From NCBI GenBank assembly GCA_973895155.1, contig OZ316898.1, positions 16,475,420 through 16,539,419 of the forward strand: a DNA stretch of 64,000 nucleotides, written 5' to 3'. Below are positions 3,001 to 42,551 of the stretch, piece by piece. Within the stretch, counting starts at the first letter, position 1, and every line of letters starts with the position of its first letter. This DNA is from Marsupella aquatica (lineage: Eukaryota; Plantae; Marchantiophyta). The notes below the pieces were generated by a model that saw nothing but the letters and a program-made list of their open reading frames with translations, did no database searches and had not been told where the DNA came from. The translations under genes and the position numbers were made by a program.

Positions 3001-4324
3001 GCCGCATCCCTGACAGCATCAATCAGGAAGCCGCCGCTATGTTTCTACGGAAATCCGGGCCTTACGTCATGGTACAAGGTCACCTACATAAGGAAGGAGT
3101 TAATGGGAAGTTACGACGCTGCTTGGAGTATAAGGAGACGCTTATCATGATGCGGGCCTTGCATGAAGAAGAAGCTAGAGGCCATTTCGCGGCTATCACA
3201 ACAGCCCGAAAGATTCTGGACTCCGGATATTGGTGGCCTACGTTGCATCGGGATGTACAATGCTTCATCAAGGGCTGTGACCTGTGTTAGCGGGCTGGGG
3301 CCCCAAGACGAGCTCATCATCACCCTCTCACGTCCGTACTTCCATTAGCACCGTTCGAAAAGTGGGGTATTGATTATATCGGGCCATTTACTCCCGTTAC
3401 CCGAAGACGAAGATGCAGGTACATCCTGCTAGCTATTGATTACTCCACCAAGTGAGTCAAAGCACGGGCTACGGTGAAGGATGACGCCGCAACCAGCACC
3501 AGGTTCTTATATGAACAGATTTTCACCCGGTTCGGACCACCCTTAGAGTTGGTAAGCGACCGTGGAACACACTTCCTCAATGACACTGTAGCCCAACTTA
3601 CGGAGCGTTACCTAGTCAAGCACCGCAAGACTACCCCGTATCATCCTAAAGCCAACGGGATGGCAGAGAGAGCAAATGGTATCATTGGGAAGATCCTCAA
3701 CAAAACTGTAGCTGCGCACAAAATGGATTGGGATGATAAGTTGTACGCAGCGGTGTACTCGTATAATCTAGCTTACAAAACTACTACGAGTCACAGCCCG
3801 TACTTTCTCGTGTTCGGCCAATATTCGTTGGTGCCCGTCGAGTTTGAAGTACACACTCCACGGGTCAGCATTCGGGATCGCTTACCTGAATCTGAAAGTT
3901 TGTCAGACCGAGCTTATCAGATTGAAGCCTTGGAAGAGGCACGGCTACTAGCAGCTCGACACGCCGTAATGAAGCAACTTCCAAGAAACAACATGACAAA
4001 GGACTACGGAAGGTCGACGTCGTGATAGGCGATCTAGTCCTTCTGTACGACAGTAGGTACATGCAGTTTCCAGGGAAGCTTCATACCCGTTGGTTAGGGC
4101 CCTTCCTAGTCAATCAGATCTACCCTAACAGATCGTTGGAGCTTGCGACGTACGCCGGCGATTTACTCCCCATGCGAGTTAGTTACGATCGTGTAAGGAA
4201 GTACCACCATCAAGACGACGACGCCGAGAGTGATGTTCGCGAGGACGCTTCACAATTAAGCAGGGAGCTATGTGACGCCGCCGGTACGGCGAGTAATGAG
4301 CAATTCAGTCTAAACCGTGCCTAG
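6..4324 (+). pseudogene. gag-pol of element A (protease, RT, RNase H, integrase), disrupted
   Basis: LVDGGAGVN protease, FLDGYSGYNQI and FIDDF RT, FASRQL RNase H, GYWWPTL and SDRGTHF integrase, GPF motif. In-frame stops at 941, 1136, 1802, 3290 and ~3455; frameshift near 3980. Confidence 0.92.
4258..4270 (+). promoter_or_regulatory. Polypurine tract of element A
   Basis: AAGCAGGGAGCTA directly before TGT, preceded by the GAGGACGCTTCACA motif shared with elements B and C. Confidence 0.75.
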
Positions 4325-4629
4325 CACGCGCATTAGGGGTATCTTAGGCCGCTATGATTAGCATAACGATAGTATTTAGGTAGCCATTATGAGTAGGAAA
4401 TCATTAGTCAATAAGGAGAATTCATGTTCGGGCTGGCGGCGCGTCGCCATTCGCACGCCCGGGTTACGAGCGTGGAGGGGCCCCTCCCTCGGGTCCGTAT
4501 AACAAACTTCGGGAGGGGTCCACTAACACGCGGTGACTCAGACCGGCGGAGTGGCCGGTACACTACAAGCGTGAACGGTTTAGCCTATAGGCAGCGAGGA
4601 GATGTCGGGGGATCGACAAGCCCTCAAGG

Positions 4630-4636
4630 TATAAAA
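4630..4636 (+). promoter_or_regulatory. TATA box in LTR A
   Basis: TATAAAA ~360 bp into the LTR and ~100 bp upstream of the ATG at 4738. Confidence 0.5.
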
Positions 4637-4737
4637 AGGGAGCCGACCCTTTGGAGTGCACCAGTCCATCAGTCCACGTGCCAGCTTTGACCCCAGCTCT
4701 CTCGTTCGCTCTAAGTCGCCACTACTATCTCCTCTGA

Positions 4738-7065
4738 ATGTCGCACACGATCCTCTCCAGCTCGGCCATTCGATTCAGGATGCAGTTCCTATCTACCGGA
4801 AGGCACTTGGCCAACTCATTGAAACATGCCAACCCACGCCGATACGAAATCGAACGCGAGTACGAGAGAGCCATCCGCCTAGCAGGACGACACCACTACA
4901 TCCTTAACTTTGACTACCCGTCTCAAAGCGAGCTTTACCGACCAGCAGAGGTATCTGGGTACTTCTTCAACGGAGACAAATATATCAGTTTCTGGGAAGC
5001 ATTGCTTCGGCTTCCGGACGAGGTCTTCAATATCCCGGGTACGATCGACTTGCAACGACATCACTTTGACCACATCCCTGCTCAGGTTCGGGCTATCATC
5101 AACAATGAGTCCAGCACTACCCGTTCGACAAGGTCGTCCGCACTTGCTTCGGAGAACTTCTACCAGCACCTGCAGAGCTTCATGGGAACTAGACCCGCAA
5201 CCACCAGTGCCAGCCCAGTGGACCGCATACCCGTACCCGTACCAACGCAGACTCAGGCTCAGGCTCAGCTTCAGTCTCAGCCTCAGCCTAGCCAACCCCC
5301 ACCGCCGATCGCCCCGCCAGCAGTACAAGTACGCTCCGTCATCAACGCTGTGGACCTTAGCGATGATGACGAGGCTACCCCACCCTTGCTCAGGCGGCCC
5401 AGAGGAGTAAACACCCAGGGGGCCGATACTACATCGTCCCCTCTCCATGCTCGGACCCAAGGAGCGGCTCCAGCAGACAACACGGTGACCGTGGCCGCCC
5501 CGGGACCAATACTAACGGCGGTAGCACTACCTATGCCCGATCGAGAGGATGGGGAGGTGTCACCTTCCCCGAGCCAGTCACGGGGGAAGAAGAGGAAGGA
5601 ACCCGCCACTGCATCCGGGTTACCATTGGCCACGGTAGCCGTGGCCAAGGTAACAATGCACCGCATGGGGGAAAACGTGCATAAGAACATCCTCCATCCC
5701 AAGCATGCGGTGTACCTGAAGACTCAGGGATTCGAGCACCTCGCCGCTCTGCCCTGGAACACTTGCAGGTACTACGAGGAGGACATGACAGAATTTGTCA
5801 AGAATTATGATGACACACGTCAGCATACTCGGCTGCGGGGAAGGAATATGTCCCTCATGGAAGAACGGCTCAAGATGATCTTCGGATTACCCGAAGGTGA
5901 CCATCAAGTCGAATCACGGGCTCCCGGGGGCAAGGGAGCCAAGTACCAATCCTTGAGTTTTCCCTCAGAAGGAGCAATGGACAACGGGTTCGTGATGAGG
6001 ACCTGCCTCATCCCCGAGATAGTTGAGCGACTGGAGTTCCAGAGGTACGCCCTCGACATGATGGAACCCCGGGGGGAGATCTCTGCCGCCCAGGTTATCC
6101 AGGTCGAGAACTATCGACCTAGGAAGTGGGCGTCGTACTTTGCTAAGAAATTCCATGAAGAGATGGAGCGGCGAAGGAAGACATTGTACATTGGCGGGAA
6201 GGCGTATTTTGCTAGCTACATCAAGATCATTCTTGAGTGGTACGCTCGATTTGATCGACAAACCCTTCCCCGTGTCAATGTTACAAAGCTGGTCCCAGCT
6301 AGGTGGGTTTTCCCGGCCTTGGAGAGATGGCCCCAACCCGAGGCCCGAAGTCCAGCGGACACGCCAGCTTCACCCACCCCACCTCCACAAGTAGTTGTAG
6401 TCGTAACCGAGGAGGTACCGGATGGGTCGGTTATCGCAACCGTTGATGCAATCCAACAGGCCGGGCTAAGTACAGAAGTCGGTACGGCGGAGTCCATGGC
6501 CCGGAAGGTAGCCTGTTTCTTCAATCAGGAGTTAGTTGCCGCAGTAAAGGCAGGTCGGGCCCAGTCAGAGGCCCTTCAGAGGATAGAGCGGTACCGGGTG
6601 GAGTCCGTATACTTAAAGAACAAAGTTGCAGCTCAAGAGGCTGAGCTTCTGCAACTACGACCCAAAGTTGCAGCCGTCGATGATTTGTTAGCAAAGGCGC
6701 ACGCCCTTACCGCCCTAGCCGAGCAGGCCAAAGCTGGGAATGAGGCCGAGATTGCACGACTCCGGAACCAGATTGACAGTTTGAAGAATCAAACTGTTAT
6801 CTGGCAGAAGGACCTGGAGGAGGCCGAAGAACGGGCCTAGCGGGACACTGCGGAGATAGCCACGCTACAGGCCGAAGTGGCACGGCTCCAAACCGAAGCC
6901 GAGAAGCAGGACCAGCTGGCGGGCAAGCTGACGAGCGACGCCCAGCAGTTGGAGGAGGCATGCCAGGAGGCCGTGGAGGAGACAGACGCGGCGAAGCAAG
7001 AGAACGAATCTTTACTGGACCAGGTCCAGCTCCTCAAGGCAGACAACGACAGACTTTGTAAGTAG
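4738..7065 (+). CDS. LTR-embedded accessory protein of element A (unknown N-terminal domain, Pro/Gln linker, plant-mobile-domain-like region, coiled coil); one internal TAG at 6838-6840
   Basis: 700-aa ORF continuing in frame to 7065; the segment EFVKNYD..TRLRGRNMSL..IFGLP aligns by eye with the family-B ORF. Confidence 0.75.
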
Positions 7066-9009
7066 CGGGATGGCCGCTCCCACTCGGGCGGCTCTGGCAA
7101 GCATACCAGGCATTAGCGGTGGAGTAGGAATAGAATAGGGTTAGGAGTAGCTAGGTCAGGCTATTGGGACAGGCACCTGCCTTAGTTACAGCAGTACTGC
7201 CATGCTGTCCAGCCTGCGTAGATTAGGATCTTCTAATAAGACACAGCCGTTTTCGGCCTGACAGTCAGATTAGTTAGGACCTAAGTCAGCGAATCTTCAG
7301 GCGGGAGGACACTCCGTTCCCCGGCCCTTAGTATTTAGTGCACCCCTCGGTAGAGGCAAGGGGGGGTTTTAGTCTCAGAGTTGGACATCCGTGGTATGTG
7401 CGGGGAGTCCCGATCTCTGGGAGTGAAAGAGTACCAAGGGGAGGGGGTAGGACTAAGCTTGCCGGGCGAGTGCGGAGCCGGGCTCCGTTGTAGTATACTC
7501 TCTCGGCCTTGAACCTGTTCATTCCGGAGCTATCGGGTCAACCAAGTGTACGCACATGTCCCCTATGTAGTAAAATCCTTTCCCATTATTTCCTTCGTGT
7601 AAATCGAGATTGTATGCTTGTGCGCGTGTATGTGTGTGTGAATCTCGTGTATAGGTGACAACGCCGGGCCGAACGCACTACCCAAGTCGTGCACGGGGTG
7701 CAGCTTGCGGGGATGTGGTTGCGAGCACGGTTGAGGACCTGTATCATAGAATCCGGATCGAAGGCGGACAACATGAAGGCTTAGAAGTCCTTAAGCCGGG
7801 GTCGATCCTGTTATCGACTAAGGTACGTTCCGGCGGCGGAACACAAACCATACCTAGGAGATGTCTGTATCTAACAGTAGGCGCACTTAGCGCTAGTTTA
7901 CGTGAATTAGGTGCATTACGCGCTTCCCTCCCTGCCCGAACCCTCATATTTACGAAGGTGGTGCCCGTTTAAAGCTGAAGCCCGAGTTTAGGCCAAGGCT
8001 GATAACGTGACAGCTTTGGCCAATCCTCCAACAAGAAGAAGATGCCACCCTAGAAGATGATGATGCTGGAGGAGATCATGACCTGGTACATCTGAAGAAG
8101 AAACTTTTCCAAGACTCAAGTGTTCACGAGGTCGCTTCACATTTGAGGAGGGGGTTATGTGGAAAGGTAAAAAGGAGCTACGGAGTGAAAGTGATCCATT
8201 TTAAAACATTTTAACCTTACTTGAAGCTTATTTAGGTTTATCCGTCACCCCTTAATCCATTTTAAGCCTCAAAGGAATGTTATGGAAGAAAGCTAAGAAT
8301 TTTGAGTTTGGAAGGAAGAATCGCTTCGGACAAACAATCGTTTTCAAAGAAATCCGAAAGAAATCGCTCAGAACCGAAGCTGAAGAATCGCTTTGGAAGT
8401 TGGAAAATCGGTTTAGACTTTTGGAAGCAACTTTGACGGATGATTGCGGATCGGTCCGATGTCGGTTTGAGGAGATTTTTGGTGTGTTGGAAAGATCTTA
8501 TCAAGGGCTATAAGGAGAATTTAATTTTGGTCCCAAAAGACCAACTTCAGAATAACCCAAACCGATTCTCCAAGGTTTTTTGGCATATGTTACTTAAATC
8601 GTTTTCTATCTCTTTTCTCACCTCTTGAGCCTTTTCATGAGTTAGATAGAGTAGGATATAGAGGGACATAGTTTAGTGTACCTTTAGGAATTAGATATAG
8701 AGAGAGTCTTAGTCTTAGTTTACCTTTTAGGACCTTTAGTTTAGATGAGAAAAGGTTTTTAGGCTTCTAAACCTTTTGGCATCTTAAACCTTTTGAGGGA
8801 GCCTTACAAGTGGACTCCCAAGATCATGATTCATTGTCTTTTCTTCAACATTGATTTTTGACCAAGTGTGGGTCTTTTTCTCATGCCAAATTGGGCTTAG
8901 GAGAAAGAATTTAATGGAGAAGACTTGTACCACTCACATCAATTGAATTTCAAATATTTCATGAATCAAACTTAAGTATTCAAGTTTTGATGTTTGAATT
9001 AGTTGTAGG

Positions 9010-21629: not shown

Positions 21630-24600
21630 TTTGGTTGTCGGCCCGCCGCTGTAGGTTCTCCATCTTCCTTGTGAATTCCTCCAACTCCTCCTGGGTCTCG
21701 TCCAGGTCTTTGCGCGCCTCCTCTAGCTCCTTTTTGGCTTCCTCCAATTCTGTCTTTAAGGTAGCCCTCTCCTCCTGGGTTGCTCTTAGCTCCTTGTCGA
21801 GCTCTACTATGACCACAGACTCCATCTTATTCATCTTGGCATAAGTCTGGTCAAGCTGGTCGTCCTTTTCACGCAGGTCGGCCTTGAAGCTGGCCGTCAG
21901 GGATGCAAGCTCCTGCTGCAGCGCAATAATCCCTTGATAGGATTTCCCTAACTCTGCTTCCTTCTGCTCAAGGGCTCCGCGGATATCTTCGAGCTCTCCT
22001 TTCAACGCCCTCTCCCTTCTCTGAGTCTCCGCCATGGCCCGGTTGTTGGCGGTTAAGTGGGCCTCCTCTGCGTCCCTTAGCTCCCGCTTCCATTTCTCTC
22101 TTTCCTTGACTACGCCGGCCAACTCTCCTTGGGTCCGAGTCAATTTATCTTTGATAATCTGATTGTCAGACTGAGCGGTATCCAACTGCCCCTGCATGAT
22201 GTTTAGCTCCTGCCGCTTAATCCGTAGCTCATCTTGGGCTTTCTTGGCTGCCTGCAGGACTTCCACCTCGGCTTCCTTCTCCCTAAGCCGCCGGATGACC
22301 TCGTCCTTTTTGCTTCTCTCCAAAGCCACCGCTTCTTCTAATCGGTGCTTCTCCAACCTCTCCCTCTGGAAGAAAGGTCCCTGCTCCAACTCCTCCCCAA
22401 AGATGTTGAGCGCCAGGTCCCCACACATCTCGCCGTACTCCATGGCTCTATCTTTAGCATAGGTGGAGTAAGTAGAAGTCATCGGCAACAACCACCTCGG
22501 CCTCTGCTCCCAAGCCGCCTTGCGGATTTCTTCTACGGTGGCAAGAGGGTTGCTTCTTTTTTTGGCAAGCCGCCTGATGTCCTCCGGCCAATCTCCTCTT
22601 GGTAAATCTTTCTCCCTAGCCAGGGCTGCCCTCTCTTCCTCCCTGAGTCGCTCCTGAAAATCTTGTGCCATCTGCTTTATGCCATCAAAGCTTGGGGGAG
22701 CAACCTCTGGTGGGGGAGACTCGGGGCTACTCTGCTGGGTGGGGTCCCCTCGAACTACTCTTGGAAGCGTGGGGATAAATCGGCCACAGGTCCTTACTCC
22801 TGGAACATGATGATCCGACCCATAGCCGGAGTTATCATTGGTGTAGTCCTCCACCGCCTCCTCCACTACTTGGACTCCCGGCTTCCCCCTTTGTTCCCCT
22901 CGTCCACCAGTGAAAACGGCCTCACAGATCACGGGCCCTTGTTCCTCCTCTGGGTTCCAGGCTGTCCTCTCCCTCTACTCTCCGCGGGAAGGAGCCTTAG
23001 GCTGCTCTACCTCCGATTCGGGGCTTCAGGCTCCCACATACATTCGCACTCCCGACTTGTGTTCCGGCCTCCTTCTCTCCTTGGCTCCGGTAAAGGGGTT
23101 TTCCCTCCTGAGTCGGCTTAGGCCAGCCTTTGGGGTAGTGTCCTGTACCGGTGCCGTTGCTGTTACTGGTGCCGTTCTCTCCTTCTCCAGCATTTTCAGC
23201 AGATTCTGCATGCCTGATTGCTGCATCGGCAAGTCTTCTTTCCTTGGCCAAAACACCTGCTCGATCGTAGGACTGACAGGCTGGTTGGGCTCTTTTGTTG
23301 CCGGCCTCTACTCCAGAACCTCCTCCGGTGCCCTTGCCGATAGGGGAAGTACTACGGCAAAGATTTGATTTCTGGCATACCGGCACAACAGCGGCATGTG
23401 ATAGCCAAGCCGGGACACGCTTCCCACGTCGATCACTTGCTGTTCCTCCTTCAACATCTTCTTCAGTTGGTTGAGGAGGTACCCGTTGTAATCCCGACTT
23501 GGGTCTGGCCTTTCTGCCAGGTAGACCTGAGCCTTGCCGATCTCTGCCCTCGGCAAGTTACAATGCATGGTCACCCGCAAGAAATCGATCATCTCTCTGA
23601 TGTGCGGGTTGGTGCAGGTATTCCGGAAGAAGCCATTCTTCATTGATGGTCCTGGGAACGACCGGAACTCCTTGTCAGGTAAGGTCTTCTTGGTATCAAC
23701 CTTGGTCTTATTACTCATCGGCAAGCCAAACACCTCGGCAATCACCCGGGGAGTGAGATAGAAATCCTTCCCATACACCCTCGTGGGATTGGTCTCGGGT
23801 TCCCATGATCCCACGAATTCTAATAAGTTTGAGTCCGGCACCTTCGGCTTCAGCCATGGTAATCTTACGAAGGCTTCCAAGCCGGATCCGGCCATGGAGC
23901 CCTGGTACTTCTTGGTCTGCATGGCCGTAAAGCATGCATCCTCCTCCCGTGCAAAATGTAATTGCACTTCCTCTGGTAGGGTCGCCGTCCAGCCTTTCCA
24001 GGTGTCATCATTTGTTGGAATGGCATTGATGGGATCGACCTCCTCCTCTTCGGCTTCTCCTTGCCTCCTGTTCTGCTGCTCTGCTGGTTTCCTTGGTGCC
24101 GCCGACCTCGTTCTTTTTGCCGGGGTGGCCTCTTCGTTGTTGTTTCCTTTCCTCTTCATCTCGGCTGCCGTGGATGTTTCTCCTAGCATAGTTGCCTTTG
24201 TCCACCCTTCCGTGCTACCCTTCAACTCCTAGTGCGCGTCGTTGCAGTGGTGGATGGCTTCCCGAATGCCGACGATTCTGTCTTCGCAAAACAGAAGGTC
24301 ATCGAGCTGATTGGCAGTAGGAGTCCACAAGAACTCGGCCTTGATGAGTTCTCCTCCTAAGAAGGCAGACTTCTGCAGCTCCCACAGTCGAGCGAGCTCC
24401 TGCCATTCTCGAGCTGCTCTCTCTGATTCTTCGTCCTCGTAAGTCCCAATGTACTCAATTGCCCATTCGAACAGGCATCCCCAAAAATGTGTCGCTTGAT
24501 TGACGTTGCTCATACCCTCCTTGACTCGATCGTTGGTATCTGTTCCCACCCAGAGTGCTTGCCTAAGCAGCTGACAATATTTGGCCTCCCATAGTCGTCT

Positions 24601-24837
24601 GCCCAGTTCGTGCTTGCAAATGAGCCACCATTCTTTGCGAGCGGTCCTTACCCCTCTCCTCCTCTGGTCTTCCCTCCCGTTGGTCACTCCTAGCCGCCAA
24701 CGCTTAGCGCGCCCTAACCCTAATCGTGTTCTCTCCCCCGGCGTCCTTACTTCCGGCCTCGGCCCGGGTTCCATAGTCATCCTTAATTGTTTATATTTTC
24801 CTTGTCTTGTTACTATACTAAGGTGTTTCCAGGGTAC
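21630..24837 (-). mobile_element. Fragment D: more divergent copy of the family-B LTR with its accessory ORF (ORFs 24229-24852, 23308-24225, 21592-22932)
   Basis: Colinear with 26310-29450; interrupted by element B on the right and joined to MULE copy 2 on the left. Confidence 0.85.
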
Positions 24838-27800
24838 TGTGGTGCGTCCCATGGCTCCCTAAACCCAAGAAACCCCCCCAGCGCAAGCCAATTCCCGCAG
24901 GTTTCTCGCTTGGCGAGGCCGTTTCCGCGGCTTAGCGGCATGGGATGCTACTAACCTCCTTCTACTACTACTATTAACATTTTACACACATATACTGGAT
25001 AGATCCTTCATCGGGTCATGAGATACGTAGCCAGCCTAATCTAGGCCTTCCCTTGTCTTCCCCTCCGTCTTGTTAGGTATGTTTGGATTCCGCTGCCGGA
25101 ATGATCCCCAATAGGCTTGGTTAAGCCGCTAAGACCTCTCTCAGCTCGACACATCCAACTCTCACTCCCCTGCTTACTTTCCTTCCTCTATTGGTTGATG
25201 TGGGCACTCTTCACACAAGTTAATGCGACACACAAATAGCAAAATGACTCCTTCTGACTGAGTCATACCATGCACTTGCCATACAAACAGTACATCTCAT
25301 ACACAAGCTCTGCGAACTAAGCCGTGAGGCCAACTCTATTCAGCTCTTAGGCATGAGGAAACATGAATATACACAAGGTCACGGTATGACTAACCGAGAG
25401 CTTCTCTTACTACTTGATCCCAGCCCGGCTGGTGCAAACTAAAAACTTGCTAAAGAAGAGGCCCTGAGCTCCCCGCTGCCCAGGTACTTATCCTGGTAGT
25501 GGATCCGCCTAATTCTTTGCAGCCTAAGCCTAATCTACTTAACTGGATCTACCTATGTACAGCGAGGCAGAAGTACAAGTGTTGCTCTTACCAGTGGAAC
25601 CGCAATCCCACTAAGCTAAGTGTCAGGGCCACCTCCTGGTCCTGATCCTAATCCTAAACTTAGAGATCTGAGCCCGCTCTGCCCACTCACGCCTCCTCCC
25701 TCCACGTCCGCCCTTCCTAAAAGGAACGACGCCCTTGCACCATCACGACATCGGTGGTGGATCCTCAATGGACGCCGCCAACGCTCCCTCCGCAACCACT
25801 GCCGTAGGTTTGTTCTCTGACAGATTACCTGCCCTTGACTGAGTCAACTCTCCATCGGCCTGACTGGGCCCACCCTCGGCTTCGGCCTCGGCTCGGAAAT
25901 CATTCTCGGCTACGGCCTCAGCCTCAGCTTCGGCCACGGCCTCCCCGGCCTGCTCAAGAGGTGGATCTGGGTTACCGGCCTCATTACTGAGTAGTTCGGC
26001 TTGGGTCGCGCCATCCCCACCTTTGGTGATAGCGGGATCTATTGCCGTGTTCATGCCGGAGGTTGGTACCGGTTTGAGTACGGCTTGAGAGGTCGAATAA
26101 CCTCCGGACCCCAAAGGTTTCTGCTTCTTCTTCTTCACTATCTCCATAGCCGGTTCCTTCCCCTTGCCGCCAACGTCCGGCACCGGGCCGTGTGTCATGG
26201 CTGGTCATTCGGCAATTACCACCCCGGGTAACTGGTTTGCCCCAACGGGAGATGGACCTGATGCAGCTAAGCATTTAAATACTGCGGCTTGTTTCTTCAG
26301 CCGCTCTATTTGGTTGTCGGCCCGCCGCTGTAGGTTCTCCATCTTCCTCGTGATTTCCTCCAACTCCTCCTGGGTCTCATCCAGGTCCTTACGTGCCTCC
26401 TCCAGCTCATTTTTGGCTTCCTCCAATTCCCTGTGGGCTTCCTCCAATTCCTTCTTGGTGGTAGCCCTCTCCTCCTGGGTTGCTCTTAGCTCCTTGTTGA
26501 GCTCTGCTACGACCTCAGACTCCATGTTATTCATCTTGGCATAAGTCTGGTCGAGCTGGGCATCCTTCTCCCGCAGGTCGGCCTTGAAGCTGGCTGTCAG
26601 GGATGCAAGCTCCTGCTGTAGCGCAATAATCCCTTGATAGGATTTCCCTAACTCGGCCTCCTTCTGCTCAAGGGCTCTACGGATGACCTCGAGCTCTCCC
26701 TTCAGCGCCCTCTCCCTTCTCTGAGTCTCCGCCGTGACCCGGTTGTTGACTGCTATATGGGCCTCCTCTGCGTCTCTCAGCTCCTTCTTCCATTTCTCCC
26801 TGTCCTTGATTGCATCGGCCAATTCTCCCTGGGTCTGAGTCAGTTTATCCTTGATAATCTGATTATCAGCCTACGCAGTGTCCAACTGCCCCTGCATGAT
26901 GTTCAGCTCATGCCACTTAATCCGCAGTTCATCTTGGGCTTTCTTGGCCGCCCTTAGATCTTCAATCTCGGCTTCCATCCTCCTAAGCCGCCGGATGACC
27001 TCGTCCTTCTTGCTTCTCTCTAAAGCCACCGCTTCTTCTAATTGGTGCTTCTCCAACTGCTCCCTATGGAAAAAGGGTCCTACCTCCAACTCCTCCCCAA
27101 AGATGTCGAGCGCAAGTTCCCCACATATCTCACCATACTCCATGGCTCTATTTTTAGCGTAGGTGGAGTAAGTAGAAGTAATCGGCATCGCCCATCGCGG
27201 CCTCTGCTCCCAAGCCGTCTTGCGGATCTCTTCAATTGTGGCTAGAGGTTTGCTTCCTTTGTCGGCTAGCCGCCTGATGTCCTCCGGCCAATCTCCTCCT
27301 GGCAAATCCTTTTCCCTAGCCAGGGCTGCCTTTTCTGCTTCCCTAACTCGCTCCTGAAATTCCTGTGCCGTCTGCTTTATGTCGTCAAAGCTCGGGGGAG
27401 CAACATCTGGTGGGGGAGACTCTGGGCTACTCTGCTGGTTGGGGTCCCCTCGAACTACCCTTGGAAGTGTGGGGATAAACCGGCCACTGGTCCTTACTCC
27501 TGGAACGTGATGGTCCGACCCATAGCCGGAGTTATCATGGCTATAGTCCTCCACTGCCTCCTCCACCTCTTGGACTTCCGGCTTCTCCCTCTCCTCTTCG
27601 CCGGTAGGAGCTTCAGGCAATTCTGCCTCAGATTCAGAGCTTGAGACTCACACATATATTCGAACACCCGGCTTGGATTCTGGCCTGATTCTCTCCTTAT
27701 TTCCGGTAAAGGGGTTTTCCCTTCTAAGTCTGCTTAGGTTGACCTCTGGGGCAGTGTCCTATATTGGTGCCGCTGCCGAAGCTTGCCGTCTTTTCCTTCT

Positions 27801-29502
27801 CCAGCATTTTCAGCAGATTCTGCATGCTTGGTTGCTGCATCGGCAAGTCTTCCTTCCTTGGCCTAAACACCTGCCCAATCGTAGGGCTAACAGGTGGTTG
27901 AGGCTTCTCTGCTACCGGCCTCGGTGCTGGAGCTTCCTCGGGTGCCCTTACCTGTAGGGGAAGTACTTGGGCAAAGGTCTGACCTCTCGCATATCGGCAC
28001 AACAGCGGCATGTGATAGCCAAGCCGCGACACGCTCCCCAGGCCGATTACCTGCTGCTCCTCCTTTAAGATCTTCTTCAATTGGTTGAGGAGGTACCCGT
28101 TGTAGTCCAGGCTTGGGTCTGGCCTCTCTACCAGATAGACCTGTGCCTTGCCGATCTCTGCCCTCGGCAAGTTACAATGCATGGTCACCCGCAAGAAGTC
28201 AATCATCTCTCCTATGTGCGGGTTGGTGCAGGTGTTCCTGAAGAAGCCATTCTTCGTTGATGGCCCGGGGAACGACCGGAACTCCTTGTCAGGCAAGGTC
28301 TTCCTGGTATCAACTTTGGTCTTATTGCCTATCGGCAAGCCAAACACTTTGGCAATCACCTTGGGAGTAAGATAGAAATCCTTCCCATATATCCTTGTGG
28401 AATTGGTCGCGGGTTCCCATGACCCCACGAATTCTAATAGGTCTAAATTCGGCACCTCCGGCTTCAGCCATGGTAATCTTACAAAGGCCTCTAAGCCGGA
28501 TCCGGCCATGAAGCCTTGGTACTTCTTGGTCTGCATGGCCGTAAAGCATGCATCCTCCTCCCGTGCAAAATGTAGTTGCACCTCCTCTGGTAGGGTTGCC
28601 GCCCAGCCCTTCCAGGTGTCATCCCTGGTTGGAATGGCATTGATGGGATCGTCCTCCTCCTCTTCGGCTTCTTCCTGCCTCCTACTCTATTGCTCGGCTG
28701 GCTTCTTTGGTGCCGCCGACCTCGTTCTTTTTGCCGGGGTGGCTCCATCGTTGACGGCTCCCTTCCTCTTCATTTTGGCTCCCGTGGATCTCTCTCCTAG
28801 CACGGTTGCCTTTGTCCACCCTCCGTGCTACCCTTCAACTCCCAGTGTATGTTGTTGCAGCATTTGATGGCTTCTTGGATGCCGACAACTCTATCTTCGC
28901 AAAACAAAAGATCGTCGAGCTGATTTGAAGTAGGAGTCCACAAGAACTCGGCCTTGATAAGTTTGCCTCCTAAGAAAGCCGTCTTCTGCAGCTCCCACAA
29001 TCGAGCGAGCTCCTACCATTCTCGAGCTGCCCTTTCTGATTCTTCGTCCTCGTAAGTCTTGATGTACTCAGTTGCCCGTTCGAACAGGCATCCCCAGAAA
29101 TGTGTCGCTTGATTGATGTTGCTCATACCCTCCTTAGGTCGATCGTCGGTATCTACTCTCTCCCCGAGTGCTTGCCTAAGCAGCTGACAGTAGTTGGCCT
29201 CCCGTAGTCGTCTGCCTAGTTCGTGCTCGCAAATGAGCCACCATTCCCTGCAAGCGCTCCTTACCCCTCTCCTCTTCCGGTTCTTCCTCCCGTTGATCCT
29301 TCCTAGCCGCCAACGCTTAGCGCGCCCTAACCCTAATCTTGTTTTCACCCCCAGCGTCCTTACCTCCAGCCTCGGCCCGGGTTCCATAGTCGCCTCTAAT
29401 TGTTTATATTTTCCTTGTTTTGTCCCTATACTAAGGTATTTCTAGGGTGCACTCCTGCTTTACCCACTTAACTGGCCGAGTGATTCCTGGCTAGGCATCA
29501 CA
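24838..29502 (-). repeat. 3' LTR of element B (~4.67 kb)
   Basis: PPT AAGTGGGGAGCTA then TGTGATGC at 29502; ends GCACCACA at 24838 (7/8 inverted match); the same end precedes the PBS in the 5' copy. Confidence 0.85.
25743..29387 (-). pseudogene. LTR-embedded accessory gene of element B (ancestrally one ORF of ~1,200 codons)
   Basis: Several breaks are open in copy D or the 5' LTR and vice versa (TAG/CAG at 29013 and 26871, TGA/GGA at 26205, TGG in B where D has TAG at 24229); terminal stop shared with the 5' LTR copy. Confidence 0.8.
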
Positions 29503-32500
29503 TAGCTCCCCACTTAATTGTGAAGCGTCCTCACGAACAACTTCATCTTCGTCCATATAGTATTTCTTGAGGCGGTCATAATGGATGCGAACTGGATACA
29601 CTTCTCCCGTAATGTTGGCCAATTGTACGGAGCCATTGGAGAACTTCATGGTTACTCTAAAGGGTCCTAACCAGCGAGTGTAAAGCTTACCTGGAAACTT
29701 ACTATACCTACTATCATAAAGTAATACAAGATCACCGGTGTGAATACTAACTGCTTTCAACTTTTTATCATACTGTTGTTTCATGGTTTTTTGTCTATAT
29801 TCTATTCTCTCAGCTGAAATCATTCTTGCCTCCTCTAAAGCTTCTAATCTATATTCTCGCTCCTTCAGGCTCTCCTCCGCTGAGGCTCTTTCCTCAATTG
29901 TAACTTGAATTGTAGGGATCTCAAGTTGCATGGGTACCAGAGCTTCTTGTCCAAAGGTTAAGAAAAAGGGTGTATGTCCGGTAGTGGTTTTATAGGCTAA
30001 ATTATAAGCAAAAACAGCAGCAAATAATTTATCATCCCAATCGAGTTTGTTCTGAGCTACTGTCTTGTTCAATATCTTTCCTATAATTCTGTTTGCTCGT
30101 TCTGTCAACCCATTTGCCTTTGGATGGTAGGGAGTAGTAGGCCTATGTCTAACTAAATACTGCTCATTTAAACGACTAATTATATCATTCAGAAAATGGG
30201 TTCCTCTATCACTAACTAATTCTAGGGGTGCTCCATACCTGGTGAAGATCTGCTCATACATGAATCTAGCCGTAGTAATTGCATCATCCTTCGTGGTTGG
30301 TCTGGCCTCTACCCATTTAGTTGCATAATCCGTAGCCAGGATTATGTACTTGTTTTGTCGAGGGTGGGTCAGTGGTTTCAGAGGTCCGATGTAATCAATA
30401 CCCCACTTCTCAAATGGTGCCAGAGGTAGAATAGGGTGCAGTGGATGTCTGGTGGACGCCCTTGGTCCTCCCGCTCGTTGACAAGGATCGCATTGTTTGA
30501 TAAACTGATAGACATCCTTGTGCAAGGTGGGCCACCAGTAACCGACATTTAATATCTTTTTAGACGTGGTTACTGGGGCAAAATATCCGCCGGCTTCTTC
30601 TCCATGCATAGCCCATAAGACTTGTTTTACCTCTCCCTTTTCTAAACACCTTTGAATAGTGCCGCTGATTCCATACCTGTGTAGTACACCCTTAATGTAC
30701 TGATACTGTCTGACCTTCCGCAAAAAGACTGCGGCTTGTTCTCGGCTTAACCCTGGCTGTAATCTGGAAGTGCTGAGAAAATGTAAAATCTCAGGGTACC
30801 ATGTATCAGCTATTTCCACAACGAATAGTTCCTCGTCGGGGAATCGATCATCGATGCAATCCGTGGCAGGTTCACCTGTGATTCTTGAAAAGAAGTCGGC
30901 ATTGGCGTGTAACTTTCCCGGCTTGATCCTCAGCTCATAGTCAAACTCCTGTAATAGCAAAATCCATCTTGCTACTCTGCCTGTAAGGTCCGGCTTATTG
31001 ACTAGGTACTTCAAACTTTCATGATCGGTATGAAAGATTACCTTGTACCCTAGTAAATAATGCCTAAACTTTTTACAGGAATAAATGACTCCTAATGCTT
31101 CCCTCTCTGTGGTGGAGTAGTTCTGTTCGGCATCGGCAAGCTGACGGCTTGCGAAGTATATGGGATGGTCCCTTCCTTTCTCATCCAACTGATTTAGTAC
31201 TGAGCCGATACAGAAGCCCGAGACATCTACAAAAACATGAAAATCTTTGTTCCAGTCCGGTGCTATCATGACTGGGGCCTCTACTAACATCTGCTTCAAT
31301 TCTACCACCGCTGTGACTCGTTCGGGTGTGGGTTCGAAGTCTGCTCCTGCCTTGAGCATGTTGGTTAATGGTAAAGCTAGTTTGGCAAAATCCTTGATGA
31401 ACCAGCGATAGTAACCAATGCATCCCAGGAAGGATCTTACATCCTTTATGTTCTTAGGTTGCATGATATCTAGCCATATTGCTAGCTTACCTTTGTCAAT
31501 CTCAATGCCCTTCCTTGATACCTTGTGACCTAGTAGCACCCCCTCGGTTACTGCAAAGAAACATTTATCTGGGTGTAACTTGAGACCTACCTCTCTGCAT
31601 CTCATGAAGGTTTTCCTGAGATATTTAGCATGTTTCGATGCCTTCCCGAATACTGCAAAGTCATCAATGAAGATTTCCATGAACTTTCTCAAGTAATCAT
31701 GAAAAATGTTTACCATCAATCGTTGGAACATAGCTGGTGCGTTGCAGAGTCCAAACGGCATACGATTGAAGACATAGATCCCCCATTCCGTGATGAAGGC
31801 CGTCTTAATTTGGTCTTCCTGCCGAATCCTGATTTGGTTATAACCAGAGTACCCATCCATGAATGAATATAGTTCATGACTGGCTACCATGTCTAGTACC
31901 ATATCAGTAAAGGGTAAGGGAAAATGGTCTTTTAACGTCGCTTCATTCAGTTTCTTGTAATCCTGACAAACCCGGATCTTGGGTTTACCATCGGGTCCAG
32001 CTTTCTTGGGAACTATCACAATTGGAGACACCCAGTCTGAATGCAGGACTGGAGTGATGAATCCAGCTTCCACTAGTTTGTCAATTTCCGTTTTGACCAG
32101 CAGGGAATACTTCGGGTTCATCCTTCGAATTGGTTGTCTGAATGATTTGGCTCCTAACATGAGATCAATTCGATATTCCCCTAATGTTGGATCTACTCCC
32201 TTTAGATCTTGGTGACTCCATGCAAACACATCCTGAAATTCAATTAGTAAGTCACTGATCTCTTTCTCAAGCTCAGGTGCTAGGTCTCTCCCTAAGTTTA
32301 GTTCCCTCCCTTCTCCTAAGTCGAGCTTCCGGTATTGCCGTGCTTGGATCATATTAATCTGCTTCTTCAAATTTGGGTCCAGCTCGGCTTCTAGTCTCTC
32401 CAATCTCATACCTCCATAAACTGGAATCTCGGCTGTACTAGCCGAATCAGTTTCTCCCTTGGTGCCCACAGACTGTCCCCTTGCCGGCCTATTCGGTTTT

Positions 32501-32757
32501 GAATTGGTAGTCAGTTTTCCTTCCTGCCTCGGCTCTGGATTCTGTCTGTGCATCTCATCCACCTCTTGCTCCTGAGGGTCAGGCCGCTGTGCTCTCCCGA
32601 CTTCTAATAGGGCCTCAATTTGTTCTGCCACTGTAATCAGCCTGTATGCCGATCCCTTGGTATTTAATTCCTTGCCGATGATCGATGGCGTTGTGGACCC
32701 TGTCGGCTCTGCCACAACGCCTGCAGAAAATCCACTATCCCTGCTACTGCTCCCCAC
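29491..32757 (-). CDS. pol of element B (RT, RNase H, integrase), open 1088 codons, probably reached by -1 frameshift
   Basis: FMDGYSGYNQI, FIDDF, FASRQL, WGIDYIGP, SDRGTHF and WLGPF motifs; GHF-to-GYF change in the integrase zinc finger. Confidence 0.93.
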   Translation of the reverse strand: MGSSSRDSGFSAGVVAEPTGSTTPSIIGKELNTKGSAYRLITVAEQIEALLEVGRAQRPDPQEQEVDEMHRQNPEPRQEGKLTTNSKPNRPARGQSVGTKGETDSASTAEIPVYGGMRLERLEAELDPNLKKQINMIQARQYRKLDLGEGRELNLGRDLAPELEKEISDLLIEFQDVFAWSHQDLKGVDPTLGEYRIDLMLGAKSFRQPIRRMNPKYSLLVKTEIDKLVEAGFITPVLHSDWVSPIVIVPKKAGPDGKPKIRVCQDYKKLNEATLKDHFPLPFTDMVLDMVASHELYSFMDGYSGYNQIRIRQEDQIKTAFITEWGIYVFNRMPFGLCNAPAMFQRLMVNIFHDYLRKFMEIFIDDFAVFGKASKHAKYLRKTFMRCREVGLKLHPDKCFFAVTEGVLLGHKVSRKGIEIDKGKLAIWLDIMQPKNIKDVRSFLGCIGYYRWFIKDFAKLALPLTNMLKAGADFEPTPERVTAVVELKQMLVEAPVMIAPDWNKDFHVFVDVSGFCIGSVLNQLDEKGRDHPIYFASRQLADAEQNYSTTEREALGVIYSCKKFRHYLLGYKVIFHTDHESLKYLVNKPDLTGRVARWILLLQEFDYELRIKPGKLHANADFFSRITGEPATDCIDDRFPDEELFVVEIADTWYPEILHFLSTSRLQPGLSREQAAVFLRKVRQYQYIKGVLHRYGISGTIQRCLEKGEVKQVLWAMHGEEAGGYFAPVTTSKKILNVGYWWPTLHKDVYQFIKQCDPCQRAGGPRASTRHPLHPILPLAPFEKWGIDYIGPLKPLTHPRQNKYIILATDYATKWVEARPTTKDDAITTARFMYEQIFTRYGAPLELVSDRGTHFLNDIISRLNEQYLVRHRPTTPYHPKANGLTERANRIIGKILNKTVAQNKLDWDDKLFAAVFAYNLAYKTTTGHTPFFLTFGQEALVPMQLEIPTIQVTIEERASAEESLKEREYRLEALEEARMISAERIEYRQKTMKQQYDKKLKAVSIHTGDLVLLYDSRYSKFPGKLYTRWLGPFRVTMKFSNGSVQLANITGEVYPVRIHYDRLKKYYMDEDEVVREDASQLSGELCDA

Positions 32758-35657
32758 TTAGCCATTTCATCCAATTGACTTACATCTTTTACTTCCTCCG
32801 GAATTCCAGCTAAAAAGGTGGATTCTATTGTAAAGCAGTCCTCGACCTCTTCGTCTTCTTCTTCCAAGTCACCTTTCATTGGTTCTTGCCATAACCCGCT
32901 GGGGGGTACCTCTGGTCCAAAGACACTTTCTTCGGTTTGGTCAACGAGGCATTCTAACCAACGTACTTCATCGGCTGACTCCAGTCCACTGTCGTACCCA
33001 TCTACTTCCCTTATGCTTTTCCTATGGTCATCCTTAGTGTCCCAGGATACCGTGATAGAGGGGGTCCCGAAAGTGAACTGCTTTTTACCCCAATCTTCTA
33101 TTACCTCGGCTAGGTACAGCCATGGCCTGCCAATTAATAGCCGAAACGACGTAGGGTTTACCGGCTTCATTACTACATAGTTAATGCTAAAGAAGATACC
33201 TCCTATCTTTGTCTTGATGCCGGTTAACACCCCCGTGGGAATGACCTGATATCCATTGGCCATGTTCAACACTCTTCCAGTCATCTCCGGTGTTAGACCC
33301 CATCCTTTTGCTGTTGAATCAATCATGATACATACCCCGGATCCTCCATCAATGGGTACCCGTAGTAATATTTCTCCTTGAATCATTAATGGTAAAGCTG
33401 GGGCTCCTTGATCTTCCTCTATCATCAGCACGTCGGATTTGGTTGCTACCTTGGGTAATCTCGGCTTGCCGAGAATAGCCTTCCTTAATTGCTTCCGGAA
33501 GTACGGGCTATTTTTCAATAGTTGACCAACTGTTGCCGAGACTCTAGAGTCTAGCACATCTTTGGCCAGGTCATAGGGAACAATCGGATTCTCCTCCGGT
33601 GGTGTTTCCTTCTGGGCTTTGGCCTGTTTTGCCACACTAGTCTCTACAGCTGTTGGATCCTCCGAAGCAAACAATGCTTTTGCTCGTTTCACATCCTTGG
33701 CTATGGCTTCGGTATTCTCCAGGGTTTCTAATTCTCTTAGTTGTTCCTTAACACTAGCCGTAACAGAGGGGTAGAACAACTTAGGATGATCTCGATTGAA
33801 GTCGCTATCTTGTGAAGGATTGGGTTCGCTGGTGGGCTCATGGCTTACCTGTATTGCCGGAGCCCTCCCTTCTCCTTCCGTTGATGTTGACGAAGAGTCG
33901 ATCTTTTCTTCCTGGACCTTCCCTTTATTTTTGGCCAGCCCATCCCACCTTTCCTTCCTTCTGGTAGATCGAGTAGAGACCCGGTAGCAATCATGATCTA
34001 AATCCTCTTCTGAGAAGGTTGATAGGGCTTCGGCCTCATCATCAGATGGTACGAACTCTGCCTCGGCATCCTCTTGCCATCCTAGTTCGATGTGGTTGAT
34101 TTGAACTCCTCCGGGGGTAGTACCTGGCGGTAAGACCTTAACTGGCAAGAGCTTATGATTTGCGGCCAGGCCTGCCACCCAAGTAGGACATTGCCCTAGC
34201 ATATGACCTTCTTGTCGGCATCCCATACATAGCTGAGCTGGTTGTCCATCACCCTGTTTGCGTGCATTCGGGCACTCTCTAGCAAAATGGCCAGGTTGAC
34301 CACAGTTATAGCATGTCGCAAATCTCTGCACATTCGGCCTAGGAGGTACTGACGGGTTCTGAATAATCCGAGGATACATCTCTCCCGGATTGTTCCTTAA
34401 TCCTGACCACAGAGATGCAGGTCTGTTGGATAGGTCTCGTGCTCCAGTCTCACTGATGCCAAAAACACTATCAGCGGCATCTCCTAGAAAGTACTCTACT
34501 TCTCCCTGACATGGTCTGATCTCGGCCACATGCCGAACATGATTAGTATTCAGTTTAGGACACGCATCTTTATGGTGTCCGGTTTTATAACATAAGGCAC
34601 ACCATACAGAGCTATCCTCCTGTACTACCTTCTTCTTCGGCTTTACCTCTGCAATTATAGCCTTAAGTTGCTCGGTAAGGGCTACGATGTTATCTGGTGG
34701 CTTAGCCTCCAGCTTGACTTTCGTCTTCCCTCTCCTTCTGCCCTTCCTTTTCCTAGTTTTTTCTTCTTCAGAACTAGAAGATGACTCACTCTTGCTACTT
34801 CCACTATCCGAGCTTGAGTTATCACTTCTTGACTTCTTAGAATGTTTCTTCTTCTTATCCTTTTTCTTATGGGGTGATCCTTCCTCCGATGAGGAACTCT
34901 CAGACTTAAGCTGTTTCTTTCGGCTTGTGATATCTTCATTAATGTATAATTGAATATCCTTAATTGCCTCGGCCAAGGTCTCCGGGTTCTCCTTCCTAAT
35001 TGCAAAACTCATCTTCTGTGGCAAAGCATTCACCAACCATTGAAGTTGCATACCTTCAGATGCATTGGTCTTTGTACGTCTTACCAGTTTTTGAAAGCGT
35101 TGCAAGAACTTCCTGAAGGATTTGTTCTCCTTGAACCGAAGTCGTCCCAACTTCAGCACTGCTAGTTCTGAAGTTCCAATGGGTCGAAACTCCTTAACAA
35201 AGAGTGTTTTGAAGATATCCCAGATGGCTTGATCTTCCACATCCAATGCTCTGTACCAAGGCCTAGCCTCACCCTTGAACAGGCCGGGAAGAATTTGCAT
35301 CTTGATGGCCGATTCTCCATTTGCTGCAGCGGTTCCCTCGAAATCATCCAACCATTCGTCCGGATCCTCATCTCCTCTCCCATGAAATGCCTTGTAATGA
35401 ATGCGCGACCGTTGGCTCAGTCTGGTCCCTGGCCTCTCGTCTGGCCGTGCCTCTGGTTCCCCCATGTCGGTTGAAGACTCACTTCTCCTTACCAACTCTT
35501 CTTCTGGTATGTCTTCTTCGATGCCACTTCCAGCTTCGGAGCTACCAGCTCTTTCTGCCCCTCTCAGTCGTTGTGTATCATACCACCCGGCGAGCTGCTG
35601 CAGTCGAGCTCTCTCTCGTTGAATCACTCTTTCTTCCCTCGGCGTAAGGTCAGTCAT
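32664..35657 (-). CDS. gag plus aspartic protease of element B (997 aa)
   Basis: Retrotransposon gag core (F.GRGDEDPDEWLDDF), three CCHC knuckles, PIDGGSGV protease, LIGRPWL. Confidence 0.92.
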   Translation of the reverse strand: MTDLTPREERVIQRERARLQQLAGWYDTQRLRGAERAGSSEAGSGIEEDIPEEELVRRSESSTDMGEPEARPDERPGTRLSQRSRIHYKAFHGRGDEDPDEWLDDFEGTAAANGESAIKMQILPGLFKGEARPWYRALDVEDQAIWDIFKTLFVKEFRPIGTSELAVLKLGRLRFKENKSFRKFLQRFQKLVRRTKTNASEGMQLQWLVNALPQKMSFAIRKENPETLAEAIKDIQLYINEDITSRKKQLKSESSSSEEGSPHKKKDKKKKHSKKSRSDNSSSDSGSSKSESSSSSEEEKTRKRKGRRRGKTKVKLEAKPPDNIVALTEQLKAIIAEVKPKKKVVQEDSSVWCALCYKTGHHKDACPKLNTNHVRHVAEIRPCQGEVEYFLGDAADSVFGISETGARDLSNRPASLWSGLRNNPGEMYPRIIQNPSVPPRPNVQRFATCYNCGQPGHFARECPNARKQGDGQPAQLCMGCRQEGHMLGQCPTWVAGLAANHKLLPVKVLPPGTTPGGVQINHIELGWQEDAEAEFVPSDDEAEALSTFSEEDLDHDCYRVSTRSTRRKERWDGLAKNKGKVQEEKIDSSSTSTEGEGRAPAIQVSHEPTSEPNPSQDSDFNRDHPKLFYPSVTASVKEQLRELETLENTEAIAKDVKRAKALFASEDPTAVETSVAKQAKAQKETPPEENPIVPYDLAKDVLDSRVSATVGQLLKNSPYFRKQLRKAILGKPRLPKVATKSDVLMIEEDQGAPALPLMIQGEILLRVPIDGGSGVCIMIDSTAKGWGLTPEMTGRVLNMANGYQVIPTGVLTGIKTKIGGIFFSINYVVMKPVNPTSFRLLIGRPWLYLAEVIEDWGKKQFTFGTPSITVSWDTKDDHRKSIREVDGYDSGLESADEVRWLECLVDQTEESVFGPEVPPSGLWQEPMKGDLEEEDEEVEDCFTIESTFLAGIPEEVKDVSQLDEMAKWGAVAGIVDFLQALWQSRQGPQRHRSSARN
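32687..32733 (-). promoter_or_regulatory. Candidate programmed -1 frameshift signal
   Basis: G GAU UUU in the gag frame (32733-32727), 5-nt spacer, perfect 10-bp stem GGCGUUGUGG/CCACAACGCC, inside the gag/pol overlap. Confidence 0.75.
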
Positions 35658-35705
35658 TACCTACGCTTCCTTTCTAACTTCATATCTCACGGCTTAAGAA
35701 ATGCC

Positions 35706-35722
35706 CCCTCCATCTAGCGCCA
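35706..35722 (-). promoter_or_regulatory. Primer-binding site of element B (probably tRNA-Asn)
   Basis: TGGCGCTAGATGGAGGG 4 nt from the LTR end; matches the plant tRNA-Asn 3' end as I recall it with one mismatch. Confidence 0.7.
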
Positions 35723-35726
35723 AAAA

Positions 35727-37776
35727 TATGGTGCGTCCCATGGCTCCCTAAACCCAAGAAACCCCCAGCTCAAGCCGATTCCCGCAGGTTTCGCGCTTGG
35801 CGAGGCCGTTTCTGCGGCTTAGCGGCATGGGACGTTGCTAACCTCCTTCTACTATTACTATTAGCCTTTTACACACATATACTGGACAGATCCTTCATCG
35901 GGTCATGAGATACGTAGCCGGCCTAATCTAGGCCTTCCCTTGTCTTCCTCTCCTTCTGGTTAGGTATGTTTGGATTCCGCCGCCAGAATGATCCCCAATA
36001 GGCTTGGTTAAGCCGCTAAGACCTCTCTCAGCTCGACACATCCAACTCTCACTCCCTTGCTTACTTTCCTTCCTTCTGGTTGATGTGGGCACTCTTCACA
36101 CAAGTTAATGCGACACACAAATAGCAAAATGACTCCTTCTGACTGAGTCATACCATGCACTTGCCATACAAACAGTACATCTCATACACAAGCTCTGCAA
36201 ACTAAGCCGTGAGGCCAACTCTATTCAGCTCTTAAGCATGAGGAAACATGAATATACACAAGGTCACGGTATGACTAACCGAGAGCTTCTCTTACTACTT
36301 GATCCCAGCCCGGCTGGTGCAAACTAAAAACTTGCTAAAGAAGAGGCCCTGAGCTCCCCGCTGCCCAGGTACTTATCCTGGTAGTGGATCCGCCTAATTC
36401 TTTGCAGCGTAAGCCTAACCTACCTAACAGTAATCTACCTGCCCGAATCTACCTATGTACAGCAAGGCAGGAGCACAAGTGTTGCTCCTACCAGTGGAAC
36501 CGCAATCCCACTAAGCTAAGTGTCAGGGCCGCTCCTGGTCCTGATCCTAATCCTAAACTTGGAGATCAGCGCCCGCCCTGCCCACTCACGCCTCCTACCT
36601 CCACGTCCGCCCTTCCTAAAAGGAACGACGCCCTTGCACCGTCACAACACCGGTGGTGGATCCTCAATGGACGCCCCCAATGCTTCCTCCGCAACCACTG
36701 CCGTTGGTCCGTCCTCTGACAGATTACCTGCCTCTGACCGAGTCAACTTTTCATCGGCCTGACTGGGCCCACCCTCGGCTTTGGCATCGGCTCGGGGATC
36801 ATTCTCGGCTACGGCCTTAGCCTCGGCTTCAGCCATTGTCTCCCCGGCCTGCTCAAGAGGTGGATCTGGGATACCGGCCTCATTACTGAGTAGTTTGGCT
36901 TGGGCCGCGCCATCCCCAACTTTGGTGATAGCGGAATCTATTGCCGTGTTCATGCCAGAGGTTGGTGCCGGTTTGAGTACGGCTTGAGGGGTCAAATAAC
37001 CTCCGGACCCTGAAGGTTTCCGCTTCTTCTTCTTCACTATCTCCACAGCCTGTTCCTTCCCTTTGCCGCCAACGTCCGGCACCGGGCCGTGTGTCACGGC
37101 TGGTCCTTCGGTAATTACCACCCCTGGTAATTGGTTTGCCCCAACGGGAGATGGACCTGATGCAGCTAAGCATTTAAATACTGCGGCTTGTTTCTTCAGC
37201 CGCTCAGTTTGGTTGTCGACCCGCCGCTGTAGGTTCTCCAACTTCCTTGTGATTTCCTCCAACTCCTCCTGGGTCTCATCCAGGTCCTTACGTGCCTTCT
37301 CCAGCTCGTTTTTGGCTTCCTCCAATTCCTTATGGGCTTCCTCCAATTCCTTCTTGGTGGTAGCCCTCTCCTCCTGGGTTGCTCTCAGCTCCTTGTCGAG
37401 CTCCGCTACGACCTCAGACTCCATGTTATTCATCTTGGCATAAGTCTGGTCGAGCTGGGCGTCCTTCTCCCGCAGGTCGGCCTTGAAGCTGGCCGACAGG
37501 GACGCAAGCTCCTGCTGTAGCGCAATAATCCCTTGATAGGATTTCCCTAACTCGGCCTCCTTCTGTTCAAGGGCTCTCCCTTCAGCGCCCTCTCCCTTCT
37601 CTGAGTCTCCGCCGTGACCCGGTTGTTGACTGCTATATGGGCCTCCTCTACGTTTCTCAGCTCCTTCTTCCATTTCTCCCTGTCCTTGATTGCGTCGGCC
37701 AATTCTCCCTGGGTTTGAGTCAGTTTATCCTTGATAATCTGATTATCAGCCTGCGCTAAGTCCAACTGCCCCTGCA
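35727..37776 (-). repeat. Truncated 5' LTR of element B, including the coiled-coil end of the accessory ORF (36642-37776)
   Basis: Colinear with 24838-26896 with a few percent mismatches and a 19-bp deletion near 37577. Confidence 0.9.
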
Positions 37777-42535: not shown

Positions 42536-42551
42536 AAGCATGGCTTTGAGG
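42055..42551 (+). repeat. Tandem array, 4 x 124-125 bp
   Basis: The ATGG of CATGGCTTTGAGG recurs at 42167, 42291, 42415 and 42540. Confidence 0.95.

Follow-up and report, generated by a model that had tools for sequence, protein, structure and literature searches.

Extra open reading frames (ORFs) are known from the non-chromovirus Ty3/gypsy retrotransposons of plants, including Athila ORF1 (PF03078), Transposase_32 (PF20167), the plant mobile domain (PMD) of Ogre, and Transposase_28 of Retand, and are described as lying between the long terminal repeats (LTRs) (PMC6317226; PMC7264820), with their role described as a long-open question (PMC7264820). In a 64,000-nucleotide stretch of Marsupella aquatica DNA (assembly GCA_973895155.1, contig OZ316898.1, positions 16,475,420 to 16,539,419 of the forward strand; hereafter the window), a minus-strand Ty3/gypsy element, here termed element B, very probably carries its accessory gene inside the LTR itself. 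In the main texts of the largely open-access literature searched, no retrotransposon of a plant was described as holding an entire gene within its LTR. For the LTR-borne ORF of element B, a fold is now predicted that links it to a protein of proven anti-silencing activity, making the question of its role testable.

As with the extra ORFs of non-chromovirus elements, the accessory ORF of element B follows pol in the sense orientation, with no chromodomain in the element and with weak PF20167 matches in two of 59 aligned relatives, and LTRs of up to ~5 kb have been described in that group, compared with 4.7 kb in element B. Unlike the Athila-type extra ORFs, described in the internal region between pol and the 3' LTR, the gene of element B lies wholly within the LTR. 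Phygy/Selgy, compared here by description, are short elements with a polyprotein filling the internal region; the 6.2 kb internal region of element B is filled by gag-pol, but its LTRs reach 4.7 kb. Retrosat2, RIRE3, and RIRE8 are also plant gypsy elements with LTRs longer than 3 kb and an extra ORF, with their ORF0 placed upstream of gag-pol, and not inside the LTR, in the available text of PMC3485330. Genes within an LTR are known from mouse mammary tumour virus (MMTV), where sag/naf lies in the U3 region (PMC9412291). As in MMTV sag, the gene of element B sits within the LTR behind an LTR promoter of its own (putative in element B) and is doubled on integration, whereas sag belongs to a vertebrate retrovirus, encodes an unrelated protein, and is several times shorter than the gene of element B, which occupies 72% of the LTR. 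MMTV sag encodes ~320 amino acids.

Structure of element B and the limits of its LTR

The domain order of element B is gag, protease, reverse transcriptase (RT), RNase H, and integrase, with the following features.

24838..29502, minus strand: 3' LTR of element B, 4,665 bp, TGT...ACA, both ends supported
29503..29532, minus strand: polypurine tract (PPT) with a conserved upstream block, common to two other families in the window
29491..32757, minus strand: pol (RT, RNase H, integrase; Pfam domains), 1,088 codons, no stops
32664..35660, minus strand: gag with zinc knuckle, and protease (Pfam domains), 998 codons, no stops
35705..35722, minus strand: primer-binding-site (PBS)-like TGGCGCTAGATGG, 4 bases from the end of the upstream repeat
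35727..37776, minus strand: 5' LTR remnant, the 3' 2,050 bp of the LTR, carrying the terminal 1.1 kb of the ORF (36642-37776) and ending short at 37776
21630..24837, minus strand: copy C, an older LTR of a sister subfamily, ~87% identical, adjoining the 3' LTR and cut short at 21630

The PBS-like sequence at 35722 is presumably of the tRNA-Arg type. A Pfam search found no chromodomain after the integrase in the pol of element B, which fits a REXdb non-chromovirus lineage, and no Pfam domain for the additional archaeal-type RNase H that is part of the definition of the Tat clade (Ogre, Retand, TatI-III; PMC6317226). The pol stop codon sits within the first 12 bases of the 3' LTR, so that no space remains between pol and the PPT to hold a gene. 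The protease and RT frames differ at 32664-32757, which may reflect a lesion or a programmed frameshift; the relative P0090 is a single 1,700-aa protein, and in a second family of the window, family A, both domains share one frame.

Read on the minus strand, the LTR unit opens after a purine tract with TGTGATGCC at 29502 and closes with GCACCACA at 24838. Position 24838 corresponds both to the PBS-adjacent end of the upstream repeat and to the break point in copy C, with the end of the upstream repeat differing by one base from the 3' LTR end and lying 4 bases from the PBS-like sequence. Over 2,037 ungapped columns, 35727-37776 and 24838-26896 are 94.6% identical (83 transitions, 26 transversions).

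The opposite end was assessed with contigs of four public sequencing runs (two studies; one run possibly the source of the window) aligned to 29440-29545. Contigs depart from the element exactly at 29502 into unrelated flanks in all four runs (15, 7, 15, and 7, 44 in total), with a median continuation of 52-140 letters and an agreement of 0.40-0.49 behind 29502, the low agreement being expected from many different insertion flanks; the other 20 of the 24 rows listed (of 84) show agreement of 0.62-1.0, as subfamily variants would give. At least two contigs extend more than 400 letters past 29502. Furthermore, contigs in all four runs link 24837 to 29470, separated by no more than short stretches, such that uninterrupted copies pass from the end of copy C into the head of the LTR, and element B is therefore placed as an insertion into an older LTR at 24837/24838, interrupting copy C ~54 bp from its start. 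Single contigs link 29502 to 28526, and 25676 to 24838, the pattern expected of nested insertions. Summed contig depth drops at the 29476 bin in all four runs and across 29503, although this is no measure of copy number and was not counted as evidence.

As both 29502 and 24838 are element ends, the ORF between them lies inside the LTR. The initial annotation had proposed, from the letters alone, a 4,665-bp unit bounded by the PPT plus TGTGATGCC and by GCACCACA, a location of the ORF within the terminal repeat, and the recurrence of ~1.1 kb of it in the repeat upstream of the PBS; the unit is borne out by the sequence and the contig flanks, the location by the varied flanks at 29502 together with the PBS-side repeat end and the copy C break at 24838, and the recurrence by 36642-37776 lying within 35727-37776.

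Selection and signals in the LTR-borne gene

The gene and its accompanying features, all within the 3' LTR, are as follows.

25743..29126, minus strand: LTR-borne accessory gene, likely ATG at 29126, ~1,127 codons, 72% of the LTR; disrupted in this copy
29127..29387, minus strand: in-frame upstream stretch, likely a 5' leader, dN/dS 1.19, with two conserved GTAAG donor-like sites at 29363 and 29264
29403..29408, minus strand: TATAAA, the sole one in the LTR, 95 bp from the LTR start and kept in copy C (24795); putative promoter
27955..28623, minus strand: 223-aa core domain with a predicted VANC21-like fold (67 relatives; structure model)
26297..27065, minus strand: long coiled-coil region, approximate limits (coiled-coil-type Pfam matches below cut-off; dN/dS 0.19)

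The reading frame from 29387 to 25743 comprises 1,215 codons, or 78% of the LTR. Comparison of copy C with the 3' LTR gives a nonsynonymous divergence (dN) of 0.088 and a synonymous divergence (dS) of 0.318, with a dN/dS of 0.276 (confidence interval (CI) 0.22-0.35; 1,006 codons), compared with 0.87 and 1.10 for the same comparison in the shifted frames. Under neutrality, 300 simulations with an identical substitution spectrum averaged a dN/dS of 0.68, and none fell below the minimum of 0.47. By segment, dN/dS is 1.19 in codons 1-88 (CI 0.54-3.40; 12/13/7 differences by codon position), followed by 0.23, 0.38, 0.17 (core), 0.36, 0.25, and 0.19 (coiled coil). The lack of coding selection in codons 1-88 points to the second in-frame ATG (29126) as the likely start of the gene; the context of this ATG is conserved in copy C at 24513. 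Judged from sequence, the LTR ORF is a real gene that evolved under purifying selection. Of the single ORF of ~1,200 codons filling ~78% of the LTR that was first proposed, the frame and extent stand, but the gene itself more likely runs from 29126 to 25743; the dN/dS comparison among copies suggested at the same time gives 0.28, below the neutral 0.68 and not near 1.

With a selected gene lying inside the LTR, each insertion deposits two gene copies, as was anticipated in the initial annotation, and each solo LTR keeps one, so that the usual deletion route of the host would not remove the gene. Such genes would escape annotation tools in which LTRs are masked as non-coding. The TATAAA at 29408 stands 21 bases ahead of the first ATG (29387), which fits a first ATG at or before the transcription start, and TGTA words cluster past the ORF stop (six at 25285-25577). 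In two families a TATAAA precedes the ORF within the LTR and TGTA clusters follow the stop, which makes it plausible that a solo LTR forms a gene complete in itself. Transcription from the TATA box close to the start of the LTR may yield an mRNA ending in the TGTA-rich 3' part, and this internal promoter and poly(A) region would make each LTR, including solo LTRs, a transcription unit, with the ORF placed either in U3 or in R. A separate RNA would then be needed for gag, either transcribed from another promoter or spliced from the GTAAG sites that are conserved.

The 3' LTR copy of the ORF contains several frameshifts and six in-frame stops, two of them where a frameshift disturbs the reading, the 5' LTR remnant a 19-bp deletion, and copy C four stops in one frame. 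Between the two element B repeats dN/dS is 0.58 (CI 0.36-1.06), a value compatible with decay under neutrality. The C-to-T differences favour CG (16%) and CHG (8%) over CHH (4.5%) sites.

A second family and the relationships of the elements

The layout of element B recurs in family A.

4271..8012, plus strand: family A, putative 3.7-kb LTR, with the shared PPT block then TGTGAC at 4271; right end (~8012) approximate

A TATA sequence at 4630 precedes a homologous ORF at 4738-7116 (792 codons, two late stops), the core of which shares 25% identity with that of element B over 184 residues (E 1e-17), and on these sequence features family A is a second family with an ORF in its putative LTR. The PPT block pattern has three matches in the window against 0.02 expected by chance, and none in viral contigs. 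In metagenomes it gave three matches, rejected as all overlap one bacterial-looking sequence without similarity to element B, and a metagenome scan for related loci yielded 317 candidates with none confirmed.

The RT-RNase H regions of A and B fall together with those of two elements of Calypogeia fissa and of a single environmental protein (support 100), apart from the angiosperm rows, in a quick tree built without labelled REXdb references from the 93 of 120 matches kept at a cover of at least 85%; element B thereby differs from its angiosperm relatives, and the placement makes a leafy liverwort the likely host. In a third family, at 8128-9008, the shared PPT block precedes TGTGG at 8158, and the 850 bases that come next contain no ORF reaching 100 codons; family A has apparently inserted just upstream of this third family. 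Just past the cut-off 5' LTR, at 38721-39301, the plus strand carries a degenerate piece of RT from a related gypsy element.

Predicted fold and function of the accessory protein

The accessory proteins of the window match no Pfam family at cut-off, with weak coiled-coil families only, and word-based protein searches with the accessory protein gave no matches. A full hidden Markov model search with the core domain found 67 relatives at E<=0.001, with five of the ten clusters looked up being Calypogeia proteins (Calypogeia fissa) and the rest unnamed or hypothetical; the relatives likewise carry core, linker, and coiled coil, the last predicted to oligomerise. A bipartite motif resembling a nuclear localisation signal (NLS) lies just upstream of the core, and NLS-like motifs in the accessory proteins predict a nuclear protein. 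The accessory proteins contain no transmembrane segment, with maximum 19-residue hydropathy values of 1.0, 0.8, and 1.3.

Alignment of 56 of the 67 relatives with the three window domains (59 members) gave a model of the core, in its copy C equivalent, with a pLDDT (predicted local distance difference test) score of 90.2 and a predicted template modelling (pTM) score of 0.87; a model from three sequences (pLDDT 32.6) was set aside. Among 48,161 chains compared, the VANC21-DNA structure 9lnk ranked first (Z 7.6, root mean square deviation 4.4, 205 residues, 8% identity), with the next match at Z 2.4, and Foldseek placed 9lnj fifth (E 1.1, template modelling (TM) score 0.51), the sole row with TM >0.2 among the matches listed. 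The guidance of the comparison tool is that Z <8 may reflect just a common arrangement, with kinship to the VANC21 fold favoured here by the isolated top match and the cover of the whole domain. At the sequence level, the 59 members show no Pfam match to the VANC family at E<=0.01, and a profile search against PDB sequences gave no VANC21 match. The VANC family carries the Pfam name DUF1985.

VANC21 is a protein of the Arabidopsis VANDAL (MuDR) DNA transposons, and VANC binds motifs and strips methylation (PMC5735166). The accessory protein resembles VANC21 in its predicted core fold, in its coiled coil (described for VANC21 in PMC13547354), and in being a transposon-encoded accessory protein, but differs in belonging to a bryophyte retrotransposon and not a eudicot DNA transposon, and in the low sequence identity noted above. 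The PMD proteins MAIN and MAIL are reported as structural kin of VANC and as motif-binding chromatin factors, with the PMD-A clade encoded by retrotransposons, and oppose Polycomb at genes (bioRxiv 2024.09.27.615353; PMC13547354). As in PMD-A, the accessory gene is carried by a retrotransposon; unlike PMD proteins, none of the 59 members matches PF10536, and the likeness to PMD is by description. The modelled fold points to a function of the VANC/PMD type and suggests that this fold is used by bryophyte mobile elements, with VANC described as dicot-specific (PMC13547354). The available text of PMC12844716 leaves open whether Athila-type ORFs modulate methylation.

On the model of the core, we regard an anti-silencing role for the accessory protein as evenly balanced between true and false. 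By this account, which as a whole carries our middling confidence, element B is a Ty3/gypsy element with a selected LTR gene of ~1,127 codons, encoding a nuclear DNA-binding protein with a VANC21-like domain and a coiled coil, which likely acts in trans to keep methylated copies of the family transcribable. The protein would bind a family-specific motif and oppose silencing as VANC does, and trans action would let copies with a broken ORF go on moving. A more far-reaching version, possible but tentative, holds that the LTR has turned into a full anti-silencing gene, with promoter, VANC-like ORF, and poly(A) region in the repeat and the ORF possibly in a giant R, and that VANC-type anti-silencing is an old retrotransposon trait predating eudicot VANDAL; if so, solo-LTR recombination, which normally disarms an element, would leave an active trans helper behind.

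Several observations count against an anti-silencing gene in the LTR. The window contains neither a pair of target-site duplications nor a whole 5' LTR, the upstream repeat ending at 37776, and all three copies of the ORF in the window are disrupted. At Z <8, with 8% identity and a Foldseek E of 1.1, the structural match is moderate, and likeness of fold does not establish a function; host MAIN, reported with the VANC fold, acts in the silencing of transposable elements (TEs) (PMC13547354). The repeated 8-9-base target motifs that are a hallmark of VANC were not found in six non-coding LTR stretches, where exact repeated 7-/8-mers were not enriched (12 of 12 tests non-significant, best 12/100 shuffles). 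Additionally, gag (966 codons tested) and pol (976) contain no stops although the repeats differ by a Kimura two-parameter distance (K2P) of 0.056, with stop-free outcomes in 1/500 (gag) and 0/500 (pol) simulations at 2.8% decay per copy, and in 26/500 and 8/500 respectively at half that decay. Such an outcome is improbable if decay is uniform. The two repeats may thus not be sisters of one insertion, with this copy of element B possibly of recombinant origin, or decay may run faster in LTR DNA; the puzzle leaves the LTR limits unaffected.

The greater divergence of the repeats than intact gag-pol suggests, together with the absence of the far end of element B from the window, would suit an internal ORF. 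On that reading the purine tract at 29502 would be a first PPT of the Athila type, reportedly described by Wright and Voytas in 2002, with a short true LTR and with the upstream repeat belonging to a neighbour in tandem. This reading is largely refuted, and highly improbable, given the 44 contigs of four runs departing exactly at 29502 into unrelated flanks and the absence of any purine run of at least 11 directly before TG within the 24838-29502 unit. With the gene in the LTR, its product might instead be a plain trans-activator or chromatin tether that switches on genomic RNA or guides integration and leaves silencing marks untouched, an alternative we consider doubtful. The fold and NLS-like motif suit any DNA-binding role, MAIN and MAIL are reported to bind promoter motifs and maintain gene expression (bioRxiv 2024.09.27.615353), and the missing motif arrays agree with such a role, whereas the sole solved structure matched is an anti-silencing factor and the decay of the element is of the methylation type.

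That the protein restrains the element, through MAIN-like silencing or copy-number control, is unlikely, as purifying selection would be harder to sustain for a purely restraining gene in two families with cores 25% identical, even though MAIN has the same fold and participates in TE silencing (PMC13547354) and, with the gene kept in each solo LTR, its dosage would follow copy number. An envelope-like or particle protein, once proposed for the Athila extra ORFs, would account for the long coiled coil and for the weak matches of two of the 59 members to PF20167 (E 0.0058), a family related to Athila ORF1 (PMC11728184), but is very unlikely for a protein with NLS-like motifs and no transmembrane segment, the core model of which found no viral structure at E<=0.001.

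Other features of the window

A Copia element at 9009-14802 has 148-bp LTRs that are 100% identical, indicating a very recent insertion. Further ORFs, at 15184-19024 and 48048-49172 (320, 550, and 374 codons), have no Pfam match. An intronless, open YchF/OLA1 GTPase gene, the exact sequence of which was unmatched in the collection searched, lies amid transposons at 42952-44139 and is possibly a retrocopy, with plant YchF/OLA1 copies usually containing introns. Just upstream of this gene, four tandem copies of a 124-bp unit (96-98% identity) occupy 42055-42551.

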